From: Octopus vulgaris | Taxonomy: Eukaryota | DNA: 64,000 nt | Assembly (NCBI GenBank): GCA_951406725.2 | Contig: OX597832.1 | Coordinates: 1,240,001-1,304,000 of the forward strand | Direction of reading: 5' to 3' | Part shown: piece after piece, positions 3,302 through 63,498 of the stretch | How the letters are laid out: every line of letters begins with the position of its first letter | Numbering within the stretch: the first letter of the stretch is position 1 | Notes under the pieces: generated by a model | Database searches by the model: none | What the model saw: only the letters and a program-made list of their open reading frames with translations | Told to the model about the DNA's origin: nothing | Program-made: the position numbers and the translations under genes

Positions 3302-3880
3302 ATTTGCATTGGGAACCACTTCACATCACTGACCAGTGATTGTCACTCATGGGTGTTGGTAGTGATTTCTTCGACGTGAGTTCGAATCATTACACACTGA
3401 TATTGTATGTTTGCTGTAGGTGAACCAAAATTCGTTGAATTGTTTAAATTGTTGGATTTTAGTCACTGTTTTGTTTGCATCTGTATATTCCCCATTTACG
3501 GGAGAAGTGGAGAAAGGAAGAAAGATGGAGAATAGACAAAGTTATGCAGAGGCAACGACCCAAGGAATAAATGCTAACACCCTGGAAGTACAGGAAATAG
3601 AAATTGACACAAGAAAGTGGAGGGAAGGAAACAAACTGGTAAAAAGAGAGGGAGTCAGTCTAAAGCAGAGGAACTGATGAACAGCATAGTAAAGAGGATG
3701 GTAGTATACAGGACGTTGTCTACATCCTCAAACAAGATAGATTTCGCCCCAACAGAAGAAATAGAGGAGTGCTTTGAAAAAGTTAAAAAATTGACCACAT
3801 ACACATGGAAGAAAGTATGGCACAGTGGAAGTAAGGTTTGGCAATGAAGAAGATGTCATAAACCACTCTACAGACCCCAG
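3302..3880 (+). mobile_element. 5' fragment of a second, related LINE family (ORF1 N-terminus)
   Basis: MENRQSYAEATT...RMVVYRTL...EEIEECFEKV...GTVEVRFGNEE distantly parallels the Tx1-like ORF1; shares an about 50-bp leader with the element ending at 3002. Confidence 0.6.
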
Positions 3881-6277: not shown

Positions 6278-6465
6278 AAACAATTGCAGCGTGGAAGGTG
6301 TTTATAAGCCATTTAAGAAACACGCAAAAACCATTAGATCCACTTCAATATTTTAATTTAATTTATCAAAATATTTTCGTCGCTTTGAGACCATGACCTG
6401 TTCACTGACAAAATTCCGTGCTAGCATGGAATTTTGTCAGTGAACAGGTTGCGGTCTCAATGACC
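6278..6465. mobile_element. Partial palindromic PLE-terminal-repeat-like element (same family as 41167-41511)
   Basis: Near identity to 41165-41350; central hairpin gacctgttcactgacaaaattcc/ggaattttgtcagtgaacaggt. Confidence 0.8.
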
Positions 6466-9229: not shown

Positions 9230-9915
9230 GAGCATATTTATTTACATTTGACAGATATTTATCCTCATCTTGTTTGTTATTAACACAATGTTTCAGCTGA
9301 TATATCCTCCAGCTTTCATCAGGTGTCTTGGGGAAATTTTGAACCTGGGTTCTCATTCCTAAGGTATTTTTCAATGTTGTTATTATTATCATTATTATTA
9401 TTATTATTATTCAGATCACTGCCTGGAATTGAACTCAGAATCTTGGGGTTAGTAGCCTGCGCTCTTAACCACTATGCCATATGCCCGTGGACAATTATAT
9501 AGTGAATTTTAGGGCTTATAAATCTAATATTCTCCTATCCTTCCTTAATACTGGTTCCCATATGCTACTCATATCTGCACTAGCTCTGCTTAGGAGGTTG
9601 TTGTGTCCTAACATATGTGCTGCTTCTTTTGGTTTTCGTATTTTCCAGTGGTGTTCTCTGTCTATTAAGGGTAGATGAACATCACAAAGCTGACATGAGG
9701 AGATATTGATAAATCGGGTGTAGCCGATCATGCATGGAAAAATGTGAGATGAATAATAGACACAGAACACCACTGGAAAATACGAAAACTAAAAGAAGCA
9801 GCACATATGATAGGACATATCAACCTCCTAAGCAGACCAAGTGCAGATATGAATAGCATATGGGAACTGGTATTAAAGAAGGATGGGAAAATATTAGATT
9901 TATAAGCCCTAAAAT
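9230..9915. mobile_element. PLE 3'-end fragments in inverted arrangement (GIY-YIG C-terminus, tRNA-like segment, (TAA)n, hammerhead)
   Basis: EHHWKIRK(P/L)KEAAHM on both strands (about 9500-9680 minus, 9690-9915 plus); homologous to 63500-64000 plus 62090-62313. Confidence 0.85.
9282..9327 (-). ncRNA. Minimal hammerhead ribozyme motif (PLE terminal repeat)
   Basis: GACAC-CTGATGA-A-AGCTG-gaggatatat-CAGCT-GAAA-CA-TT-GTGTT; homologs at 26774-26819(-), 27479-27524(+), 62138-62183(-). Confidence 0.7.
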
Positions 9916-18450: not shown

Positions 18451-18657
18451 GAGTGTGTGTGCGTGTGTTGTGTGTACGTGCGTGCGAGTGAATGTATGCA
18501 TATATGTGCGTGTGTGTACAAATGTAGGAGTTTATATGTGTGTTTATATGTGTGTATATGTATGTATGCAAGCACACACTTTAAAATTGAAAGATTGATG
18601 GAAAAAATACAGCCAACCCCATATGCATGTATGTATGTATGTATGTATGTGTGTGTA

Positions 18658-18690
<33 letters not shown>

Positions 18691-19120
18691 GAGTGTGTAT
18701 GTATGTATGTGTGTGTGTGTATGTATGTATGTGTGTGTATGTGTGTGTGCATGCGTGTATGTAGGTGTAGGTATGTATGTGTGTGTGTATGTATGTGTGT
18801 GTGTATGTATGTGTGTGTGTGTATGTGTATGTTTGTGTGTGTGTGTATGTATGTATGTATGAATGTGGGCGCGTGTGCGTGGGGTTTCTTCTGGAGTTGT
18901 GTGGGCGTAATGTACATGCGCGTGCTTGTGTGCGCTTACGTGCGTGTATGTGTGTGTGTGTCTCTGCTAGGTGTTTATAAGTGTGTGTGTATCTGTATGA
19001 GTATTGTTTGTTGGTGTGTATAGGTGTGGAAGTATGTGTGCGTACATGTGCATGTAGGTTGTATGTGTGTGGTGTGTTGGAAGTAGGTGTGTTCGTGGAT
19101 ACGTGAGTATGTGTGTGTGC
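18450..19120. repeat. Compound (TG)n/(TATG)n microsatellite
   Basis: Directly visible low-complexity tract. Confidence 0.95.
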
Positions 19121-19129
19121 TTCTGTATA

Positions 19130-20690
19130 AGGACAATAAAAAAAAGAGAGGGAGAGGTGGAGCGCAGTCACTAAGAGGAGGGGGCTGTGTTGAGTCCGTG
19201 TGGGTATTGGTTTGTAGAGTGAAAATGAAACGTTGCTCCAAGTGAAGCCTGGATTGTGGAGGACCGTTGTGTGGGGCGAGACCAAATACAGAGATGTCAT
19301 CGGGGAATGGCTGGCCGAGCGGAAGTGACGTGCGACGGGAGAATTGGACCGTAGACATACATACATACACACACACATACATACATACACACACACACAC
19401 ACATACACACACACACATACATACACACATACATACATACACACACACACATACATGCATGCACACATACATACATACACACACACACACACACTTACAC
19501 ACATACATACATACACACATACATACACACATACACACACACATACATACACACACATATACACCCACACATACATACATACATACACACATACATACAT
19601 ACATTGTACACACACGCACAGATGTTCGACGAATTGGTCTGATAACCGGCGTCCCGTCTGTCCTATATACAGCATTCCGCAGAGGTTGCATTTAATGCAG
19701 TATATGAGACCAGACGAAGTACACGTAAAAGAATGTCTGATACGTACAGTTCGCTGGTTGGAACTGCAGTGGTGTTGGTGATGAAGGGGCAGGTGTTGCA
19801 GCGGGATCTGGAGCACGGGAGGGATCCGTGTGGGGCTGAAGGGGAAGAAGAGAGTGCTACGGACCAGGAGGTCGCGTAGATTCCGGGCTCGTTTGAAGGA
19901 GGACAGGGGTGGGTTGGAGAAAATGGGGCGGGTCGTGGGATCGAGCTGGAGGCGACGGAAGGCACGTAGTATCTTCCGACGAAGGGGTAGAGTAGAGGGG
20001 TGGAAAAGGAGGGGAAAGGGGGTGCGGTTGGGGGGGTGAGAGGAAGGAGAAAGGGCGGTGGTGCGACGGGTGAGGGCGTTCAAGACCAGTGTAGGTGGGT
20101 ATCCTCGATGCCTGAACAGGCGGGCCAGGTATTGAGACTGGGTCTCGAAATCCTGGTCGCGGCTGCACAAGTGTCGGAGGCAGAGGAACTGGGAGTAGGG
20201 GATGGCCCGTTTGGTGTGGAAGGGATGGGCGGAGAAGTTGAGATAGAGGTGGGAATCCGTGGGTTTGAAGAAAGCGGAGGTGGTGAGAGTTGGAGGGGTG
20301 GTCGATGCTGAGAGAGATATCAAGGAAGTTGACAAAGGTATTAGAGATGGTGGAAGTGAATTGTAGAGAAGGGTGGAAGTTAGAGAGGAAAGAGATGAAG
20401 TGGCAGAGTTGTTCGCGGGAAAGGGAGGTGGCGCCTATGCAGTCGTCTATGTAGCGACCGTATAGTTCTGGGGTTGGCCCGGAGAATTGGGAGAATACTT
20501 GGGCCTCATTGTAGCCAACAAAGAGATTGGCGAAATTGGGGCCCATTCTCGTTCCCATCGCGACCCCGGACAACTGTTGGTACGTTTCCCCGGCGAACGT
20601 GAAACAGTTGAGGGTGAGGACGAGCTCTGCCAGGCGGAGAAGGGTGGGGTGCAGGATGGCTCTGGACAGCATGCAGCTTCATCAAGAGGC
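19130..20690 (-). mobile_element. GC-rich Penelope-like element (RT plus GIY-YIG), 5'-truncated, few disablements
   Basis: LVLTLNCFTF, GVAMGTRMGPNFANLFVG, GRYIDDC, VNFLDI, KPTDSHLYL, AIPYSQF; FTCTSSGLIYCIKCNLCGMLYIGQTGRRL; (CA)/(CATA)n tract at about 19353-19618 inside GIY-YIG. Confidence 0.92.
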
Positions 20691-20699
20691 AAGCTGAAG

Positions 20700-22201
20700 G
20701 AGTGAGGTGGAGTGACAAAGTGGGTGAGAAGACAACTACCATGATGCAAGAAGTCTTGGAGAGAGTGACTGCAGAGAGGACCCAGTAAGAGGAAATTGTT
20801 GTGTGCCCAAATAGAGTGGATGTCCTGAGCAGAGTAAAGAAATTCTCGTTGCAGGTGCCAGAGGATCTGGAGTGGTTACAATGTGTTGACTGAGTGACTC
20901 AGAGCTGAGAAGACTGCATACCATGCATTACATGGGGTTGAACAGGACCCTGTTCCTAGCCAGGAAACTTGACTCAGACGTGACCAGGCAGAGTGTGCAG
21001 AGAGTAGTTGGGAGCTGTGACAGGTGCCAGTCTATTGACTCCACTTCGGGTGTGCATGAGGCAGTCGAGTGGAACACAACTGGTAGTGGATGTAATGCAC
21101 TACTGGCAGGGGACATACCTATTGATGGTTGAATGTGGACCAGGGCGATTGGCCATATGAAGGAAGATTAAGACAGGGACCACGGAAGGAATCACAAGAA
21201 TACTGAGATATTCCTAGAATGTGGTCCCATGGATGAGCCGCTTGTGGACAATGGCACTGCATTTCGCTTGGAAGTGCTGAAGGAAATGCTCAACAAGTGG
21301 CATATTAGCTGTTTCTTCAGAGTGGCATACCGCCCAAGTGGCAATGGGGTTGTGGAGAGGCATCATCGCACCATCCATACCTTAGTAGAGAGGGGCTATA
21401 TGTCACTAGTCAAGACAGTTTTTGGTATAATATGTCGCCCAGGTTGGGACAGGCTGAGGAGCCAGTGCCACACAGGGCAATATTCATGTATGAGTGGAGA
21501 CATCCATGTACTGCATCGCCACAACCCACAGAAGAGAAAGAGCATGCCTTTTCGCAGGTCAAGGAAGAATTCTGGGTTAAACCCCCAAATGCATGGTGCA
21601 CATCACCATGGGGAAAAGGGACAATAACCTCTGTAAATTCGAGGAACAATGTGTCCATAGATGGCATGCCACGTCATGTTTTAGATGTGCACAGGATCAT
21701 CAATGCGACAGAGGATGGAGCCAACAGTAATGGACAAGAGGACGAAGCTGGTAGCAACATGCCAGGGAGTGAGGCCAGTCCTGAGGTTCCACAGTGGTTG
21801 CAGAGGGAGCAGTGCTCTCCACACTGGTTGGCTGATTATGAGACAAGGCATATGGTCAGGGTTGAGGAGAGGGTGTGGGCAGGTTAGTTGAATGATCTTC
21901 AGATCAGGGGGCATATGGTGTTATGAGCTAGGCTATGTTGTAGGGAAGGACCGGAAGTGAGGGAGTACGCATGTCCCGTCGGAAGTGGGGCATGTGTGTC
22001 CCACAGGAAGGGCCGTGGTGGACATGCAGGGTTGGCATGACACAAACGGTTAGTTGGTAGTGGACAGTGTACAAGAGCAGACCTGTTAGGCAGTACAGCA
22101 GCAGACAGAGCATGTGAGCGTTGTGAGTGACCCTTCCAGATAGACAGGTAAGACTACCATAATTCTCTCTCTGCTTCTGTCTTTTCCTCCTTCACATCGC
22201 A
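20700..22201 (+). mobile_element. Gypsy-like LTR retrotransposon 3' half (pol remnants, integrase, PPT, 3' LTR about 21914-22201)
   Basis: LHTMHYMGLNRTLFLAR...CDRCQSID; LVDNGTAFR...AYRPSGNGVVERHHRTI integrase core; LTR homologous to 13632-13910. Confidence 0.88.
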
Positions 22202-26719: not shown

Positions 26720-26867
26720 TTATTTACAATTATTTACATTTGACAGATATTTGTCCTCATCTTATTTGTTGTTAACACAATGTTTTGGCTGATATACCCT
26801 CCAGCTTTCATCAGGTGTCTCAGGGAAATTTCGAACCTGGGTTCTCATTCCTAAGGTATTTTTTCAA

Positions 26868-26926
<59 letters not shown>

Positions 26927-35328: not shown

Positions 35329-38300
35329 TCAGTAACTTTGTGCTACTTTGAAAACTATATATTTCGAACAAGAATTTAGCAGCACCACCACTACCCGAAC
35401 AATTGTCTCTTGCAGACTCAGACTTTTTGCATTGTTATTTGCTGTTACCAAAGTTATGAGTTCGTTCCATGTTTTTGTCTGGTATTGTAATATTTTTGTG
35501 TATTTTACTTTGAACTGAACTGTTGTCCTTCGTGGAACGGTAATTTTCACCCTACGGGGCAGAAAATTCTGTTTTAAAATTATTGTGGAAAAAAAAAATT
35601 ATTATTGCTGAACTGTTTTTCTTTACCCATTGCTGGGTAGTGAATTTATTTTGTCATTTTTGGTGATTTAAAAAAAGAATTATATGATGGAATTTAATAT
35701 TGCCTCAAAGAACGATTTTCCTGCGATGGGAAAAGGTAATACCAGTGAAAATGTAAGTGAAACAAAAACACAGGAAAGGAAAGACCCAGTTTTTCTGCCA
35801 CTGTAGGCAGCAATGTAATAAAAATGGAGCAACTATTTAAGTTTCATAACTTAATCAGGAAAAGTGGTAGTGACACAAAACTACTGACTCCTCCAGAGAC
35901 AGTGCAAGCGATATATGCGTGAATGGTTGTGTATAAAATTTACAACTTTATAGAAAAAAGAATTATGGACGCCAAGAATGACATCGTTGAAAAATGTTTG
36001 GCACCTATTTGGAACCAAGTAACCTACGTTAGCTGTGGAACAAGAAGCACAACGGTGGAAGCACAGTTCAAAACGGCTAACATAGTGAAGGAGGTCTCCA
36101 TGAAAACCTTAAGAAATGAGGAAATAATTCTGTTACCCACATACTTGGGTTGCAGAACAGTGAAAATGACAGTAGATGAGATCCTGGCTGGTTATGAGGT
36201 TATGTGGGTAGCAGTGGTGGTCATATACGATGTGGAGGAGGCGGTGTTGATATTACAAATGAAAAAAAAAAAGAAGCCATCAACTGAAAGGCCAGACGCT
36301 CAAGATGGTTGTTTAAGCGTCGAATGAAATGCTAGAAAATTTGCCTGATAGGATGTTTGTAGGGGAGGGGCTAACCATGGGAGTAGCTGTTGAAGAATGT
36401 AGGCCTCGTTGCTTCAAATGTGAAGAAAAGGGCCATGTCCGCTTAAGGTGCATGAAAAAAGCTGCGAAGGCAATAAAAGGAAGAAAGGAAAAGCTGGAAA
36501 ATACAACAGAAACGAAAGAGGGAACAATGGCGGAAGAAAAGACAGATAAGAGCGATGAAATGGAGTATACTACAGTATCACACAAAAGAAAAAAGCACAA
36601 GTCCCAGACTCCTCTCCCCAAACAAAAAAATCTGTTAAACACACAACAGACAAAGCAAAATTCCTCAGACCAACCCCGTGGTAAAACCTTTTACCAACCC
36701 CCACCCCAAAACACAAGAAAGAATTGTTTCCTACGTGAAAGCACACCACAAGACTCGAGTTTTCAAAGTAACTAAAGATATGTACCTGAATATAAGGTTC
36801 GCAAAAATATACGCGGGCCTATTTTTGGAGCTGAAGGGAAGGTATCCGGAGGGTATCATAGACATCAGCTCCCAAATGGCAGACAAAAAATTATTAACAA
36901 GCCCAGTGACAACACCATGAAAAGCCCAGTGGCTACACCAATGAAAAGCCCAGTGGCTACACCATTAAAAGAAAAGGATGGGGAGGCAGGCGAATTTGTG
37001 CAGCCCCTCCCCAAACTCCAACTGTCAGTTACTCCTTTTTTTCCATTTTTCACAATGGCAATTAAGTTAGGGAGTATAAATGTACGTAGGCTGGGGTTGC
37101 AAAGGAAACAAGCTTGTCTCCTGAATGACCTCACGTCATGAGATATAGATGTATGCATTGCAACTGAGTCCAAGATGAGTGGGCCACAAGTGTTCTTGCC
37201 TCTTCTAAATGGCTATGAGAAATTTATTTCTCCTAGCCAATGAGGAAGAGGTGGGTGGTGGTCCTACTCAGGAAGACCTTGAACTTTCAGCTAAGTACAG
37301 TCTTTCTAGACCCAGAAGGTAGGCTGGTCGTCCTAGATGTGACTCACAAAAGAAAACAGTCCTTCAAGTTGGTAGCAGTCTATGCTCCTAAGGAGTGTAG
37401 GCAGTCTGATCTTTATTGAGACCTAGAGCACTTTCTAGTGACGTCAAAAACAGTAGTTCTGTTAGGAGACTTTAAGACTATCCTCGATGCATGGGTGGAT
37501 TGTGTTGGCTTGACTGATAGGAGGGGAAATCCTGGCCTCAAGGGTCTACTAGAGAGCTATAATCTAGTAGACCATTACAGACTGGATGAGCCGAGCGTTC
37601 CACAGTGGATGTGGAGTAATAATAACGGCTCACGCAGATCTTATATAGATAGGGTATTCGTTAGAGAAAGAGATAGGAATACTTTTAGTTGTTCACAATT
37701 TTGTATTGTACCTTACATGGATCACAAATTTGTGACGTGTGAGGTACATATAGATAAATGTCATAGACAGGGACCCGGGTACTGGAAAATGAACAAGTCT
37801 ATTTTGACTTGTGAAGCTTTCCGTGCCCGGATTAAGGATTTAGTACAAAGGGCACTTTGTGGCCCTCAATAAAGCCATTTGTTTAGAGTCTATTAGATTT
37901 AGCAATCAGCTAAGTTTAGTTAGATCTAGAGTAGAAAGGGAACTAGTTAAGAATTTAGACAAGGCTATGGAATCTGGCTCTGCAGCTAGAGTGCTGGCGG
38001 CAAGAATGGTCTTGTACTGTCACCTCAAAACCAAACACGAAGTTTGCAGAGTTAGAGCTAAGCTACATGCAGTGGGGTGAGAAGGTATTAACATTGCCGG
38101 ATGGGCCCGTTGTGTGGAGCGTCAGGGGGGCAATAAAGCCTCTATAAAGTCTTTAACTGACAAACAGGGGCACAAGATCTATGGACAGGAAATGATGCAA
38201 AAGGCCTTTCACCAGCATTTCACCCGGTTGTTTGGCAGAGCATGGGGAATTCGTAAAGGGCTTCCTCGCTGGTGGACCATGACTCTTGGCATGTGAGGTG

Positions 38301-40523
38301 GAATACTGCGGAGGTCAAAGAGGTGTTGGCTGAGTATGCCAGGGCTGGATGGTCTACCCTATGAGTTTTATCATAGCATGCTGGAGTTGTTTGGGGACCT
38401 GCTGGCAACAGAATGGGAGGATTCCCAGCTCTGTGAGTTGGGGAGTGGTGATGCTGATCCAGAAGGACCCGAGTAAGGGGGACAGTATAAGTAATTATAG
38501 GCCCATAACTCTATTCAATGTAGAGTTAAAGATTATGGCCAAGGTGTTAGAAAAGGTTGATGTGTGTCGTGGAGAAGCTTGTAGGGAAGGCGCAGACATG
38601 CACCATTCCAGGCAGGTCAACCCAGGACAATCTTCCCCTTATACACTACACCTTAGACAGGTTGGGAAAATTAACCGGCAAAGGTAGGGCACTAGTTCAT
38701 TTAAACCAAAGTAAAGCATTTGATAGGGTAGACCACCAGTATCTGGAGGTGGTCCTCAAAGTGGCTGGGCTGGTCCCGGACTTCTGTAGGTGGATCTCCG
38801 CAATGTATAGCACCATCAAATCCACAGTTCAGATAAATGGCTACCTGTCGGAGCCGTTTTTGATCAAGCACTCAGTTCGTCAAGATTGTCCCCTGTCTCT
38901 GCTTCTGTTGGCTCTTGAGCCATTACTGCAGAAGTTGGAGAATTCGGGGTGCACCCCCAATGAAAACTGGATGCAATAAGTAGGTCTCTGCTTATGCAGA
39001 TGACGTCACCATCATCGTCTCCAATGAGGCTCAGCTACCTTGTGTAGAGGACCCTATCAAAGGATATGAGGTGGTGGCATGGACAAAATTTAACAGGGAC
39101 AAGTCCATCGGCTTGCACCTCGGCACCTGAGGAGCAAATCAATATCATCCAGTGTCTCGGGTCATTGGACAGATGGTCCTTTTACGTTTGGTTTGGACTG
39201 GACTCCCAGATGAAGAAGAATTGGAGCGAGGTGGAAGACAGGGTAGAGGCCCTAATTCAGACTTGGTCCGGACGGGCTCTGTCCGTGAACAGAAGGGCAG
39301 ACGTGGTACAGGTGTTTATTGCATCTGTAATCACCTACTGCCTAACCGTTGTCCCTGGCCCTGACTTGTGTTTAAAGAAGTTGGAGTGCTTCCTCTTCTG
39401 CTTATTGTGGAAAGGAGGAAAGCCACTTGTGAGGTGCTCCGTCTGCTGCCAAGAACAGCTAAAGGGTGGGTTAGGGATGCCCTGGCTAATGATGTGTACA
39501 CATGCATTCAGGCTGAGACATCTCTGGCACTACCTGGAGGGTGACAAGGTGTGGAATCCGCTGGTGCAGGAATTCTTTCCGCGACCAACCTCTTTGGAGA
39601 GATTCAAACCAGGTTATTTTAAAAGACGTAATCTGACAGAATGGCAAAAGGAGTGTCGACAGGCACTCGTGCTAATCCACAAGACAGGCAAGGCTGGCAG
39701 TGGGAATACCACCTCGGTTTTGTATAAAGGGCTGGTAGAGTTTAAAAATGATGTCCTAGGAGGGGCTCTGGGGTTCGACGAAAACCAACTTGCCAACCTG
39801 TTCCAAAAAGCTTTCAGGCCAGGGTATTTGGATAATTACTAAAAATCCCTGATCTGGCAGTGCTACAGGAACACTTTACCTGTTCGCGATAAATTATCCA
39901 GGCACAGAATGTCAACGGCATGTCCAAGATGTGGGCTGGACGATGAAACCGTCCTGCATGCTTTTGTACACTGTCAGAAGCTTTCAGGCTTGATAATTTA
40001 CGTTGAACATGTGTTGTCACATCTAGGCAGAGTACAGCTATCAGCTGAGTCTATAATAAAGATTTTGCCGTCAACCAGACTCTCAAAGAAGGTGAAGCAT
40101 TTTTCTCTGTTCAGTTGCAGTGTTGAAAGAGTGTGTGTGGAAGACCAGATTGCAAGGACTCGTGGCGGGATTCTTCATCTCTGGCCCTGGTCTACTATTA
40201 TACTTCAGATACCATCTGAAGGGCAAGACAGGGCTGGAGAGGAGAATTCTGTTGCGAAGTGTGTTCGAGAAAAGATGGAAGGCCGTGATAAGAAAGGTGG
40301 GTGTGAGTAACCCTACTTAATCCTCATTGGAAAATGGAATGGGATTGTCGCTGGGCCTTTCAAGATCCCCCATCCAAGTTAAAATATATATATATATTTC
40401 ATCAATATTTTAAATCTATAAGTTACATTCGAACTCATCATAACATTATTTGTGTGTATTGTCCTGTATTGTCCACTCTATGTGATATTCATTATCATAA
40501 TAAAGAATTTACCTCTAGCCAAA
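35329..40523 (+). mobile_element. Full-length but decayed Tx1/L1-clade LINE (ORF1 with CCHC; ORF2 APE-RT-zinc finger)
   Basis: ORF1 CFKCEEKGHVRLRC; ORF2 IKLGSINVRRL, LLGDFK, SYIDRVFV, MDHKFV, GPGYWKMNKSIL, NYRPITLFNVELKIMAKVL, KAFDRVDH, VRQDCPLS, AYADDVT, CPRCGLDDETVLHAFVHC; AATAAA near 40499. Confidence 0.93.
36899..36970 (+). repeat. Three approximately 24-bp tandem repeats near the end of Tx1 ORF1
   Basis: aaagcccagtggctacacca units encoding KSPVATP. Confidence 0.85.
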
Positions 40524-40799: not shown

Positions 40800-41166
40800 G
40801 ACATGCTAAAAAAGTGTGCTAATAAGCTACATTTACATTTACTTACTGAAAGGCAAGCCAAGCTGCCAAAGATAAGTCATGAATTGTCCCGATAACTTTT
40901 TGAACTTTCTTTAAATGTTTTTGATATACAATATTAAGTTCATTTTTTTTTTACTGTGTACAACTAGAATGAAAAAGCAGCTTTTTACAAATGTATCTCC
41001 GGCAGCTGATACTCTTAAGTCATAATCAAACCTGATTTGGGCTATCAGTTAAGAATTAATGTTTTCAACAAGATATAACCATAATCCTTTATTGTTAAGT
41101 TTCTTTACTATCTTAAGAAAAAAAAAGTCATTCTGTGATTTATATTTTGAAATACTAACATTTAAA

Positions 41167-41511
41167 ACAATTGCAGCATGGAAGGTATTTATAAGCTATC
41201 TAAGAAACACACAAAAACCGTTAGATTCACTTCAACATTTAAATTTAATTTATCAAAATATTTTCGTCGCCTTCAGACCGCGACCTGTTCACTGACAAAA
41301 TTCTGTGCTGCATGGAATTTTGTCAGTGAACAGGTCGCGGTCTGAAAGCGCCAAAAATATTTTGACAAATTAAATTTAAATGTTGAAGTGAATCTAATGA
41401 TTTTTGTGTGTTTCTTAAATGGCTTATAAACACCTTCCACGCTGCAATTGTTTTCGTTCCAGCCACACAATCTCAGATCAGGTCACTTGCTATGCAAGTA
41501 CATCTCCGTAA
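41167..41511. mobile_element. Palindromic PLE-terminal-repeat-like insertion with variant hammerheads
   Basis: About 290-bp palindrome 41164-41454 plus a short tail; flanking direct repeat taacatttaaa (41156-41166, 41512-41522). Confidence 0.85.
41249..41299 (-). ncRNA. Minimal hammerhead-like ribozyme with G3:C8 core variant
   Basis: TTTGTCA-GTGAACA-G-GTCGC-ggtctgaag-GCGAC-GAAA-ATAT-T-T-TGATAAA; copies at 41319-41369(+) and 6362-6412(-). Confidence 0.7.
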
Positions 41512-42805
41512 TAACATTTAAATATTTAAAAATTATCTAATAAGTAGGATTAGTAAAGGGAAGAATTACATCTCATTACCTTCCAGTTCTCTTTGAGGAT
41601 CGGTTTGGAGTGATGGCTCATGTTCCCAGCTGACTTGATCATATTGGGCCGATATCGGGTGAACAGCGGAATATCGATAATTTTTTTGCCGATATCAGCC
41701 TGTCATCAGTACGACATCAAAACTGAGTTATTTTACGTTTTGCATTTCTCATTGTCAGTTCCATTTACTACTATCATCATCCATGTTGAAAAAATTGTAT
41801 TTGTAGTAGTATTGTTAATTTTTTTTAACAGTATTCCAATATCGGGAGGACATTGGATTACTGTCATGCTATAGCTGGACACGCAGGGACAGGGGAAGCA
41901 ACTTAAAATGCAATCCTTTCATTTTCCACATCAAAAGCAGGGAAATTCAATATCTCTGTCGAAAGTTAGGATTAAAAAAACACGTGATTTATCTAGTGTC
42001 ATAATGCCATTTTCAAAACTTGGAGCCAAACATTTAATTTAAGGTATGTTAAATTGGGATGAAAAAAGTTCTTAAAATTGTGTTTTTGAAGCATCAACAA
42101 ACATTATGCTGTTTACATTTAAAGCTAATAATTGAATGGTCATCAACATCTGACAGGTTATTCGTTTTGGTGCATGTAGCCAAAAACAAATAGAAAATAA
42201 ACCAACATAAACCTACCACAGCTCAACATGTATTTCAAATTTCTCAATGAAACCCTACAGAAATGGATATCATTAGGAGAGCTACAGATAGCCTGTCTAC
42301 AGATTCCAGACAGACAGTTCTTTAATAAGTAGTATAATTTGGGGTATCACTTTTAGATGTTTGTTTATTTTTTTGTTTTGGTGTTTATCAACATATCTGA
42401 CAGCTAGGATGACCCCATGTTTGCTGATTTTATTATTTGCATTGGAAGTGGGGCTGAATATCAGTTCCTCAGGATACCTATGTAAAACTCTGAGTCCCCA
42501 CATACCATCCACCTTTCATTTTACGTGAAAGTGCGGGTAGGCTGTCAGACACGTCCATAGATAGCACTACAAGTTTGAGGCTTATCATAAACATTTGTAT
42601 GAGTTGCAATGTGTTCTAAGGTTATGTATTGACAAACATATACCCATGTTATTCACTATGTGAAGGGAAATACATGTAATTCCCTGTTTGTTTTCCATTC
42701 AATTTTGTACAGGGCACCAGTTTTTTTAGATGATGAGAAGGATGATGATTCTGAGTATCAAAGACGGATGCTTCAAAAGCCACCTCCTGTCATTCAGTTT
42801 CCAAA

Positions 42806-44915: not shown

Positions 44916-46080
44916 CGAGGGACGTTCAATAAGTAATGCCTCTGACCCACTTGCAGTTGTTGGATCTAGCTGAAATTTTGCATGTGCAATCATTTATATC
45001 TCTATAGAGTAAGTGGCAAATTACAGCTCTGAATTAATTGTGGTTTCCGATTTACAGGTGTTTGAACCGAGTCAAGTGTGAAATGGAGCCTGTTGAGTGT
45101 CGAGCAGTGATCCGGTTTTTGTATTTGAAAGGACGCACACCACGGGAGACTTTTGATGAAATGAAAGTAACTTATGGTGATGATGCCCCATCATATGACC
45201 TTGTAAAACGCTGGCATCGTGAATTCAAACATGGTCGGAACTCTGTGGAAACAGCTCCCAGATCTGGTCGCCCCTTCTGCCATTGATGAGGCATCTCTCC
45301 GTCAAGTTGAGGCTGCCATTTTGGAAGATCGATGCATAATTATTCGCCAAATAGCCCATCAGGTCAAGATTAGTACCGGGTCTGTGGAAACTATCATTCA
45401 CGACCATTTGCATATGCAAAAGGTGTCTGCCAGATGGATTCCCAGGTTGCTCACGCCTTTCCAGAAGCAAGAACGCATCGAGTGCTCGAGGGTGAATTTG
45501 GAGATGTGCCAAGAAGATGAGTCAAAATTTGCTGGCAAGGTCATGCTCACAGTCTTCTGGGACCAGGACGGAGTAGTGATGACAGATTTCCTGGCAAAGG
45601 GTACCACAATTGCAGGAGCCTATTATGCTTCACTTTTGAGGAAATTAAGAGAAGTTATCAAAATCAAGAGGCGGGGCAAGATCAGCAAAGGCATCCTCCT
45701 CCTGCAGGACAACGCTCCGGTCCACAACTCGCTTGTCGCCAGATCAGAAGCACAGGCGTATGGCTATGAACTCCTCCCCCATCCCCCTACTTTCCTGACC
45801 TTGTACCCTCTGATTTTCACCTCTTTCCAGTCATGAAGTTGTTTTTGAAAGGAAAGCGTTTTCCCAGATGATGCAGCCTTGATTTCTGAAGTCACGTTCA
45901 GGTTGGAGGACCAAGCTGGGTTCTTCTACAAAAACGGTCTCCAGAGCTGCATCAAACAATGGGAGAAATGCGTAACTCTGGGTAGTTCCTATGTAGAAAA
46001 AGACTAATAACTGTGCCAAGTTTCGTTGCTCTACTGCTATGGGAAGTGAGTCAGGGGCATTACTTATTGAACACCCCTCG
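44916..46080 (+). mobile_element. Mariner (DD34D) transposon, internally deleted and frameshifted
   Basis: TA flanks; TIRs cgagggacgttcaataagtaatgcc / ggcattacttattgaacacccctcg; MEPVECRAVIRFL, RSGRP, WIPRLLT, AGKVMLTVFWD, LLQDNAPVH; first catalytic D region deleted. Confidence 0.95.
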
Positions 46081-49099: not shown

Positions 49100-49810
49100 T
49101 TAATTATTAACTTGCTCACCTGGAACATCTCCAAAATTAAACATTTTAACATATGTAATATTCTTCACATTATTAGGCACACTATATCTTACTCCTTTAA
49201 TTCAAATCAAAAATGTGCGAGTGTATATCATACTGCTTTTACTTTTTTTCTGAAGTGTGATGAATTTTAAAGTTGTTGAATGAAAAAAATATTCAATTTT
49301 CTGTCTGATAACGATGTCAAACAAATAAGTTTAAAAAAAAACACAGTCAAAAATAATTAAGAGAAAGCCTACTTTTCAAATATGAAATTGTTGATCTGCT
49401 TACACTTTTTAACTTTTTACCTTTATTATCTGCTCTGTGCACTATGTAAAGTCAACCAGAAGCAAAAGTGAGGCAAATAAAAATTTTTTTCAGTACCACA
49501 TCATGTTAAGAGAATGCAGGATCTTCAGAGGTTGCAAAGATGTGATTCAGTGAACAAATTAATGATAAAGCACTTTCAGCATGTTGAAAAGTGCCATTGA
49601 AATTTTGCTTGTCAAAAACAATTTGTCTCTGGAAAGACATTCAACTTTCCCAAGGATGCAAAGAAAAGCTCATACTGCCAGTTTGGTTCAAGGAAACCCT
49701 GTGGCTTCATTATAATATTCAGCATGATGTTGTTGCCTGCTAGTATTGTCTGGGATAAGTTTGGCATAACAAAATTACAATGCCTAAGGAAACTGCCTTA
49801 ATGACAGTGA
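49100..49810 (+). mobile_element. hAT 5' fragment (paralog of the 11090 and 52300 copies)
   Basis: Colinear nucleotide homology with 11170-12040 and 52300-53040. Confidence 0.8.
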
Positions 49811-49814
49811 GGCA

Positions 49815-50690
49815 CTAGATTTCTTTCGAAAACATAATATCATTCCCAGTACAGTAGACTGCCCTAGATGTCATTTACCATGTACACTCCGCGAAAACAC
49901 AAGCATCTTCCGATGTCGAAGGACTGCTCGCCGTCGAAGACAAAGGCCCACGGAATGTGGATATTCTATATCCCTATACAACAACACTTTTTTGGAGCAG
50001 AATCAGATACCACCCTGTAAAGTCCTGTTATTTGTAAATTACTTTCTCACAGACTGTTGGTCGCATGCATTAGTCATGGAGAATTTAAGGATTTCATATC
50101 CGACCTTGATTGATTGGCGATCCTTCTGTTCGGAGGTTTGTCAGCATTGGGTTGAGAATTACTGGGACCAAATCGGTGGACCAGGAGTTGAAGTAGAAAT
50201 TGATGAGACGGTTATTGTAAGAAGAAAATATAATCATGGAAGACTCACAAAAACTATCTGGCTTTTCGGTGGGATAGAGTGAGTAGCCAAAAAGAAATTT
50301 TTTATACCTCTTTCATCTGAGTGTGGTGAAGAGGAAAGGCAAGATGCCGCCACACTGATCCCCTTAATTACTCGATATATACGCCAAGGGTCCATAGAAT
50401 ATAGCGATTCTTGGGCTGCGTATAATTCTCTGGTAAATCTCGGCTATACCCACTTTTGGATCAACCACAGTGAAAATTTTGTTGATCCTACAAACGCGTC
50501 GGTGCACACACAGATGATAGAGAGATTGTGGGGGTTAGTTAAGAGATCTGTTGTTCGCCCAGGCATTCGTGCCTGTTACTTAAAGCAATACCTCTCTAGA
50601 TTCCTATTTATGGAAAGCATTAAACCTGCTGCCAAGAGAATACACGTATTCTTATTGGCAGCAGCAAGTCTTTATCCTGGCTCGAGATAA
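49815..50690 (+). pseudogene. Merlin/IS1595-family DDE transposase, disrupted
   Basis: IGGPGVEVEIDET..RRKYNHGR...WLFGGIE*...TLIPLI...YSDSWAAY...NHSENFVDP...HTQMIERLW; TGA at 50280-50282 in an otherwise open C-terminal frame. Confidence 0.92.
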
Positions 50691-62090: not shown

Positions 62091-62271
62091 ACATTATTTA
62101 CATTTGACAGATATTTATCCTCATCTTGTTTGTTGTTAACACAATGTTTCAGTTGATATACTCTCCAACCTTCATCAGGTGTCTTGGGGAACTTTCGAAC
62201 CTGGGTTCTCATTCCTAAGGTATTTTTCGTTGTTGTTGTTGTTGCTGTTGTTGTTGCTGTTGTTGTTGTTG

Positions 62272-62315
<44 letters not shown>

Positions 62316-63498
62316 TAGTTTTATTTTTATTTTTATAGCGTGCTTTCACTTCACTACCGAGCGCAGCTCTGTGTGCCTTGGGTATGTGCTGTGATTTGTT
62401 GTGATGCTCTGATGGTTATTGTATGGAAAGTGTTCTGCGTAGGATGTGTGCAGTGCCTAGTAGTGCAATTTTCTGTATGTTATATGTGTTTGTAAGTCCT
62501 GGTGTTTTTGTTATGTATTTGTCTGAATATTTTTTTATCATGCCTAATGCACCTACTATGATAGGAATTGTTTCTGTTTTCAGATTCCACATTCTAGTTA
62601 CCTCTATTTCCAGGTCTTTGTATTTTGAGAGTTTCTCCATTTCTTTTAGAGACACGTTGTCATCTGCCGGTACTGATACATCAATTAGAAAGCATTTGTT
62701 TTCTTCATGGTCTCTGACAACTATATCTGGTCTGTTGGCCTTAATTTCTCTATCTGTGTGTATCGGCATATCCCAGAGTATGGTTGCTTTCTCGTTTTCT
62801 GTGACCTTTTCTGGTGTGTGCCTATACCATCTTTTTTCTGTTATTATTCCATAATGTTGGCATAGCTTCCAATGTATGTAAGTTCCAACTCTGTCATGTC
62901 TGTGAATATATTCCTTCTTAGCCAGGACTGGGCAGCTAGAGATAATATGATTTATTGTTTCTTGTCCATCTCCACATATTCTGCAGTTACTTGTAATATT
63001 TCTTTTCATTACATGTTTTTGGTAATTTCTGGTGGGGAGGCTTTGGTCTTGTGCTGCAATTAAAAATCCCTCTGTTTCTGCTTTGAGTCCTGAGCTTCTC
63101 AACCATTGCTGGGATTTTTCTTTGTCTATTTCTTTTGCGTTTAGTTTAGTCCAGTATTTACCATGAAGGGGCTTTTCTTGCCATCGTTTTATCATGGTTC
63201 GTTGCTGTTCTATTTTTAGTTTGGATTTCATTTTTTTTATAGCTTTTGTTGTTTCTTCATCTTCTTCTTCTTCATGTTTATTAGGTGGTATGATTTCTTG
63301 TTTGTATTTGTCAGCTTCCTTAAATACTGAGAACAGTTTTTTGTTTTGCTCGTGTTTTGCCGCTATCTGGATCAGTTTTCCTTCCGTCTGAAGTAGATAT
63401 TTTTGCAGTCCTATGGTGGTTATTTTATAGTAGTTTTCCAGCTGTATAAGGCCTCTACCACCTTCTATACGTTATTCTTCTTCTTCTTCTTCTTCTTC

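Follow-up and report, generated by a model that had tools for sequence, protein, structure and literature searches.

The palindrome at 41164–41454 of the window (the whole 64,000-nucleotide stretch of Octopus vulgaris DNA that was analyzed) is an inverted copy and a direct copy of the pLTR of an autonomous Penelope-like element (PLE) with reverse transcriptase (RT) and GIY-YIG domains. These terminal repeats probably each bear a family-wide minimal hammerhead motif with a G3:C8 pair, predicted to self-cleave weakly as an RNA dimer; the window's own copy is in all likelihood inert. Sequence comparison supports the motif as a homolog of the minimal type I hammerhead with a C3G/G8C swap, for which self-cleavage is predicted.

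Structure of the Insertion and Its Copies in the Window

The initial annotation described a palindrome with an 11 bp flanking duplication and no ORF. The duplication (TAACATTTAAA) is real and has only two occurrences in the window, but it frames 41167–41511, so that the insertion is 345 bp long and includes about 57 bp past the palindrome, which correspond to the PLE 'tail'. The absence of an ORF was misleading, as the last 93 nt are the beginning of the autonomous ORF. The features of this insertion, and of a second one in the window, are as follows.

41156–41166, no strand: target-site duplication, left copy, identical to 41512–41522
41512–41522, no strand: target-site duplication, right copy, 11 bp
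41164–41313, minus strand: inverted pLTR copy, overlapping the left target duplication by 3 nt
41310–41511, plus strand: direct pLTR copy and tail, joined to the inverted copy via about 4 nt of microhomology at 41310–41313
41419–41511, plus strand: ORF start of the autonomous element, first ~31 codons
41455–41511, plus strand: optional tail, the stretch between the two 3′ ends of the family
6278–6422, minus strand: second insertion, inverted pLTR arm, with G3 at 6405 and a stem II mismatch, abutting a (TA)n run
6433–6460, plus strand: second insertion, direct arm, ending inside loop II without GAAA, with unrelated sequence from 6461

The 5′ end of the inverted copy (41313) lies 21 nt before G3 and 2 nt short of the inferred transcription start, and its 3′ end is the 'short' end of the family, at about ORF codon 11. 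A 1 nt insertion after codon 13 shifts the frame of the ORF start in the 41419–41511 copy. The sequence GTGAACAGG occurs exactly four times in the 64 kb window, at 41284–41292 (minus), 41326–41334 (plus), 6397–6405 (minus), and 6440–6448 (plus). The core is thus unchanged in all four arms, as first noted, but this says little alone because the arm copies in the window are about 90% alike throughout.

The near-perfect inverted repeat (41164–41454) is predicted to fold as RNA into one 143 bp hairpin (−203.5 kcal/mol, z = −25). An Rfam match to MIR6140 reflects this long hairpin only and falls under the gathering score of that family. Motifs are present on both strands, as had been reported, but they belong to the usual inverted 5′-truncated PLE copy and its 143 bp hairpin, not to a dimer: each transcript of the palindrome pairs its sense arm with its antisense arm in the hairpin, so the two cannot supply a ribozyme dimer.

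A MITE or foldback DNA transposon would also be small and numerous, with long inverted arms and a target duplication; the likeness to a hammerhead would then be due to chance. This explanation is very improbable. The arms are unequal, the junction varies between copies, and the ends are asymmetric; 14/30 copies examined have no inverted arm, so there are no fixed terminal inverted repeats; the sequence belongs to an RT element, as its pLTR, and this linkage refutes a DNA transposon; and shuffled sequences give the motif in just 0–1 of 500 cases, which argues against chance.

Other Mobile Elements in the Window

The window contains several further remnants. A second Penelope-like remnant (18581–20678, minus strand) has an RT with VAMG and YIDD and a GIY-YIG piece, interrupted by microsatellites; by eye, this RT resembles the Neptune row in the supplement of Craig et al. 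(2021; PMC8557442). A 351-aa piece of a non-LTR retrotransposon (62416–63471, minus strand) shows a zf-RVT match and, by eye, a restriction-like endonuclease motif. Related 3′ pieces of this element lie at 9238–9411, 26730–26903, and 62094–62267, its short repeated end occurring three times in the window beside (TTA)n. Decayed pieces on the plus strand comprise a mariner-type transposase (45207–45836; Pfam Transposase_1), a LINE-like remnant (36317–40310), an integrase-like piece (21172–21887), and a probable transposase (49788–50282).

The Hammerhead Motif

The left arm of the insertion holds the one intact motif; its parts, and the decayed motif of the right arm, are as follows.

41249–41299, minus strand: intact minimal type I hammerhead motif, G3 at 41292 and C8 at 41287; cleavage is a prediction
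41299–41293 with 41255–41249, minus strand: stem I, TTTGTCA/TGATAAA, 7 bp with one G–U
41285, minus strand: extra G after the core GTGAACA (G3 U4 G5 A6 A7 C8 A9)
41284–41280 with 41270–41266, minus strand: stem II, GTCGC/GCGAC, 5 bp with a 9 nt loop
41265–41262, minus strand: GAAA, followed by the palindromic ATAT loop and TT
Between 41256 and 41255, minus strand: predicted cut
41319–41369, plus strand: decayed hammerhead motif, G3 at 41326, predicted to be inactive

The left-arm motif is the sole match to the strict descriptor in the window, and 20 shuffled windows gave 0 matches. The right arm has the mutated stem II and GAAA that had been noted, in the form of a GCGCC mismatch and a change of G12 to A. 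A full motif in each arm was claimed; this holds for the left arm here, but the minus-strand arm at 6362–6460 carries the stem II mismatch and the plus-strand arm ends at about 6460, before GAAA.

The extra nucleotide 9/10.1, G10.1–C11.1, the palindromic 15.1–16.1 segment, and stems I and II are all present, as in the minimal type I hammerheads of PLEs. The core departs from the consensus CUGANGA in that the family reads GTGAACA; the 3:8 Watson–Crick pair is nevertheless present as G3:C8, and U4, G5, A6, G12, A13, and A14 are kept. In agreement with the expectation that searches based on CUGANGA would miss such a motif, Rfam returned no hammerhead family among 16 matches at E ≤ 5. The minimum-energy fold predicted for the motif of one further locus (L136) contains stems I and II (z = −2.96).

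Core State Across the Family in the Genome

GTGAACA is the state of the family and not peculiar to the window. When arms were counted across the genome (2.8 Gb in 227 contigs) with a 20 nt pattern in which positions 3, 7, and 8 were free, 6,323 of the 7,079 matching arms read GTGAACA, and reversed-pattern controls gave 0 genome matches. Among 166 aligned arms from fetched loci, G3 is found in 161 and C8 in 155, and the frequent non-CpG changes lie in loop II, which has 8 nt and 9 nt forms as its two main types, on either side of the motif (before stem I and beyond its end), and at a single stem I position, where A–U becomes G–U in 27/166 arms. In the contig sets of four organisms, no other core letter reaches ≥3%. 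These counts, together with the position of the changes mostly outside the core, indicate that G3:C8 is the state of the master element and not a product of decay. Core and flank otherwise vary alike in the 166 arms, which indicates that genomic copies decay neutrally, with no sign of selection after insertion.

The Autonomous Element

The proposed association with a PLE was verified in the genome. The G3:C8 motif lies about 1.0 kb behind an RT + GIY-YIG ORF in 8/8 long-ORF loci fetched. L137 is a partial tandem with a direct repeat of 1,118 nt and the motif at both 3242 and 7503; an ATG at 3334, 92 nt after the first motif, opens a frame that continues into the ORF. The pLTR of this partial tandem therefore holds both the hammerhead and the ORF start, as in endonuclease-bearing PLEs. 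L135 has an open frame of 1,025 aa in which YVDD and YIG motifs and CCHH residues are recognizable by eye. The GIY-YIG domain matches Pfam with E = 3.3e-5, and Pfam RVT_1 gave no match in the 376-aa piece tested. The best named protein relative, with 55% identity, is from Octopus vulgaris itself.

Nine residues before the first cysteine of the endonuclease (EN) domain, the protein carries a linker, CX3CxxC, which matches the CX2-5CxxC near the CCHH of Nematis in a comparison by eye with supplement rows. Copies of the family end at one of two 3′ positions, near codons 11 and 31 and about 60 nt apart, which delimit the optional tail. An inverted partner accompanies 16 of the 30 copies that were selected by their 3′ part. 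With partial tandems, an adjacent inverted 5′-truncated copy, an optional tail, and a variable target duplication, the element is an endonuclease-bearing PLE. As about half of the sampled copies are inverted pairs, the family may also supply many long dsRNA hairpins on read-through, which would be potential substrates for A-to-I editing or small RNA pathways.

Origin of the Short Copies

The short copies, about 150 and 210 nt in size, contain pLTR and ORF-start sequence only; they carry target duplications, and most of them start around 23 nt ahead of G3. In the 30 copies picked by their 3′ part, 21 of the 5′ ends fall between −24 and −3 relative to G3, including 11 between −24 and −17; in this set, L074 and L078 are mis-called owing to internal deletions, and the values at −7 arise in part where the alignment stops at a subfamily difference. 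AGATG is preceded by G in 630 copies, by A or T in 212, and by the templated C in 620, the element itself reading CAGATG and the window being about two-thirds AT. An untemplated G at a fixed 5′ end is a known mark of reverse transcription through an m7G cap. The TCAGAT at the 5′ end of the short copies resembles an initiator, and an Inr-like start in the pLTR has been described for PLEs (Arkhipova et al., 2013; PMC3846280).

The start, which is placed from DNA, also resembles a 3′ splice site, and acceptor-like sequence precedes the motif; some PLE families have a spliceosomal intron in the pLTR. An intron was considered as the source of the extra G and set aside: nothing is common to the sequence upstream of it in 30/30 loci viewed, so that these G-start copies share no upstream exon; an exon of one or two letters would be compatible with these data. 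The contigs hold no matching joint, a result counted neither for nor against an intron. The short copies look like products of an RT that began within the ORF on a capped, uncut RNA and copied it as far as the cap.

The 5′ ends accumulate about 60 nt before the predicted cut, unlike those of retrozyme monomers, which end at the cut site. Copies that start at the predicted cut are rare. Pattern matches at this position number 114, of which 30 were inspected: 17 were flagged as truncated by a script and 18 by eye, three being ambiguous because of stem I microhomology. At the one control site there are 240 matches, with 7/30 flagged by script and 4 by eye (the others being internal deletions, with one script miss). 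Extrapolation from the 30 loci each gives about 68 starts at the cut versus about 32 at the control; this roughly twofold excess over a single control, taken without a statistical test, is not counted as support for cleavage.

A plausible course of events begins with the pLTR promoter, which would start a capped RNA 23 nt before G3. The protein of the element would nick AT-rich DNA and start reverse transcription inside the ORF start, as in the Anolis element PAc. Copying back to the cap would yield products of 150 or 210 nt bearing the extra G, and hence thousands of short copies, while a second round or a template switch in the opposite direction would create the palindrome and read-through tandem RNAs would give rise to the long, ORF-bearing copies.

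Because products of these sizes would follow from such initiation, with uncut templates, no separate non-autonomous master is needed. The initial annotation had instead regarded the short copies as a non-autonomous family, and a retrozyme- or SINE-like family, self-transcribed and mobilized, could be imagined: short arms number in the thousands, but of 150 scored RT matches some tens are close; some solo pLTRs may be re-transcribed, since the inferred start site lies within them; and none of the fetched loci joins the subfamily with the 9 nt loop II to a long open ORF. We regard such a family as quite unlikely. All of the sequence of the short copies is shared with the pLTR and ORF start, and their 3′ ends fit internal RT initiation, falling at the same two positions within the ORF that also end long copies. 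There are no tandem monomer arrays here, the starts are not at the cut site as in retrozyme monomers, and an older ORF remnant (L154) has a motif with the 9 nt loop nearby.

Related Families and Covariation

A hammerhead is found at the same place behind the ORF in five related families, four with C3:G8 and one with U3:A8. The sister family, from the same genome, is younger, shares 56% protein identity, and has an ORF of 1,312 aa; its motif reads CUGAUGC, extra G, and stem II GUCAC/GUGAC. The other four are relatives from metagenome contigs with 29–46% identity: L155 has U3:A8 with C9, L156 has C3:G8 with U15.1:A16.1, and L157 and L164 have C3:G8. The metagenome set scanned, drawn from 22 loci, comprised four single loci, one four-locus family, and one 56 nt stub with post-stop sequence. 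Overall, 6/8 post-ORF regions contain a sense match and 0/8 an antisense match, and shuffles match in 0–1 of 500 each; behind the ORFs of L159 and the 56 nt stub (L165) there is no descriptor match. The C3G/G8C-swapped homolog proposed at the outset is borne out by these matches at the homologous site and by the core of the family in 6,323/7,079 arms.

In a sequence-only alignment of seven rows, two of them from one family, U4, G5, A6, G10.1, G12, A13, and A14 are invariant, both partners differ in 12/16 pairs, and pairing holds in 90% of cells, versus 63% in shuffled and 26–48% in slid controls. The descriptor demanded a Watson–Crick 3:8 pair and both stems, so these pairing counts are partly built in. 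The firm point of the alignment is that a descriptor match occurs at the homologous site in each matching family, with four or five different self-complementary loops. Covariation of the stems, named as a test in the initial annotation, is seen between families but not within the family, where the 166 arms show no two-sided covariation.

Across families, the 3:8 pair takes the forms G:C, C:G (four times), and U:A, and the 15.1:16.1 pair occurs in two states. The tree places the G3:C8 family as sister to the C3:G8 family (SH-aLRT 100) among C3:G8 and U3:A8 lineages, and G3:C8 is therefore the derived state. This tree comes from a quick search with a very distant outgroup, with 6/27 inner branches unresolved, and contains the families analyzed here without reference Nematis, Hydra, and Neptune proteins. 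The other pairings at the same spot in related families suggest that the pair has been kept for function.

Several observations accompany these families. The sister family (L143–L149) is very young, with many near-identical ORFs of 1,310–1,312 aa; its hammerhead has C at position 9 and a non-perfect palindrome, AGAACU, and its ORFs contain a long insertion rich in asparagine, as has been reported for Adineta Penelope. At L156:4973–5016, a PLE hammerhead with the U15.1:A16.1 swap sits in a tandem junction, with the next ORF starting about 80 nt further on. The L159–L162 family (~35% identity) has no hammerhead in the 555 nt behind its ORF; CTGAAGAGG is present there, with no GAAA-closed hammerhead within the descriptor, and the motif may have been lost or rearranged. 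Four distant families (L136, L145, L155, and L157) have in common a short motif, approximately GYGTGTT followed by ATGG or TTGG, which follows the hammerhead and lies on or close to the start codon; it might be a promoter element or bind a protein.

Predicted Cleavage and Function

In the energy model, the closed monomer (−8.5 kcal/mol) costs 5.4 kcal/mol more than the open monomer (−13.9 kcal/mol), and the active-form dimer (−28.4 kcal/mol) is about level with two open monomers (−27.8 kcal/mol), a different dimer fold being lower (−32.3 kcal/mol). Cleavage, if any, would accordingly be by two sense RNAs. U17 and a 1 bp helix III are unfavorable for hammerhead cleavage. Cutting would need two sense RNAs paired via the self-complementary AAUAUU, probably together with the protein of the element; it would remove the first 60 nt including the cap, and would not be required for insertion.

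A parallel for the swap comes from PAc (PMC11167929). A single change at position 3 or 8 of its hammerhead kills cleavage, and the C3G/G8C double change partly rescues it. Cleavage of PAc RNA needs protein, and uncut RNA is the insertion substrate (PMC11167929). The natural swap probably arose once, on the branch to the G3:C8 family, and was kept because a 3:8 Watson–Crick pair is needed for the active fold.

The motif might instead descend from a PLE hammerhead that no longer cuts; it would then serve a structural or promoter role, or not be maintained at all, and the swap would be a fixed accident. Such a loss of cutting is unlikely, even though it would agree with the origin of most copies from uncut RNA, with the indifference of PAc insertion in vitro to hammerhead mutants (PMC11167929), with the poor cleavage of published minimal hammerhead ribozymes (min-HHRs; PMC4209133), with the position just downstream of the inferred start, where internal PLE promoters lie (PMC2377424), and with the lack of the motif in one relative (L159–L162). 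Two changes that restore exactly a tertiary pair are improbable absent selection, the seven invariant positions persist while the stems are rewritten, and subfamily changes avoid the core and stem II. A DNA promoter element, moreover, would not need paired changes. We favor a motif that is predicted to cleave weakly as an RNA dimer.

A more speculative role, which we put forward as doubtful, is that in this PLE clade the hammerhead acts as a brake that depends on concentration: cutting would occur only when two element RNAs, and the protein of the element, come together, and the cap would be lost 56 nt upstream of the start codon, which would limit translation and copying as expression rises.

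Relation to Known Systems

Hammerheads in pLTRs and opposite-strand pairs (PMC4209133), as well as the U3:A8 variant (PMC3088659), have already been published. The min-HHRs of metazoan PLE pLTRs (Cervera and de la Peña, 2014; PMC4209133) occupy the same pLTR position and likewise have the extra 9/10.1 nucleotide, G10.1–C11.1, a 1 bp helix III with a palindromic loop, thousands of solo copies, and nearby opposite-strand pairs. In the part of Fig. S3 of that study considered here (56 motifs by its legend), the rows contain only C3:G8 and U3:A8, in contrast to the G3:C8 of the present family. Among natural core variants, U3:A8 is a compensatory change of the same tertiary pair, and U15.1:A16.1 also occurs (Perreault et al., 2011; PMC3088659); both are found in the relatives described above, in L155 and L156, respectively. 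The core-variation section of that paper names no natural G3:C8. In the literature searched, G3:C8 hammerheads appear as engineered variants only; the likeliest source of a natural one, Lünse et al. (2017; RNA Biol 14:1499), lies outside this coverage.

PAc, the Anolis Poseidon element, similarly has two 3′ ends inside the ORF start that define the tail, AT-rich targets, and an uncut template (PMC11167929). The swap is a partly active laboratory mutant in PAc and natural here; the ORF of PAc begins inside stem II, whereas here the ATG is 56 nt behind the predicted cut; and the present element differs further in its tail of about 60 nt and the CX3CxxC linker of its protein (PMC11167929). With EN+ PLEs in general (Craig et al., 2021, PMC8557442; Arkhipova et al., 2013, PMC3846280) it has in common the C-terminal GIY-YIG, CCHH, and short CxxC linker (Nematis-like, also in Neptune), as well as partial tandems, the inverted 5′-truncated copy, the optional tail, and the Inr-like pLTR start. 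Its DKS and KDHK motifs resemble those of the Hydra clade, and the Nematis rows shown in the supplement are without the long insertion that it has between RT motifs 3 and 4 (PMC8557442). By eye, the affinities are thus mixed, the linker and CCHH being Nematis/Neptune-like but DKS and KDHK Hydra-like. Metazoan non-LTR retrozymes (PMC7229834; bioRxiv 10.64898/2026.07.22.740005) are likewise short, protein-free, hammerhead-bearing, PLE-related repeats; they are described as tandem monomers with canonical type I hammerheads, whereas the copies here are dispersed pieces of the pLTR, and their starts precede the ribozyme.

Implications

G3:C8 is, from these comparisons, a real and well-supported new core variant of a known ribozyme–retroelement system, with activity as a prediction. 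At least 6,000 motifs in this genome alone escape descriptors that insist on CUGANGA. Genome-scale support for internal RT initiation on capped RNA comes from the untemplated G at a fixed 5′ end; such initiation would explain the abundant solo pLTRs without a separate non-autonomous family. The catalytic need of PLE hammerheads is debatable, since their cleavage is poor and insertion in vitro proceeds without them; a clade with the 3:8 pair in three Watson–Crick states and the 15.1:16.1 pair in two argues from sequence for a selected active fold, and the related families are a ready set of natural constructs. If the brake were true, it would explain why the 3:8 pair has been kept through C:G, U:A, and G:C while nearly all insertions come from uncut capped RNA; G3:C8, a pair familiar from engineered rescue mutants, would then have its first natural example at the level of an entire family, and surveys based on CUGANGA would have undercounted genomic ribozymes.
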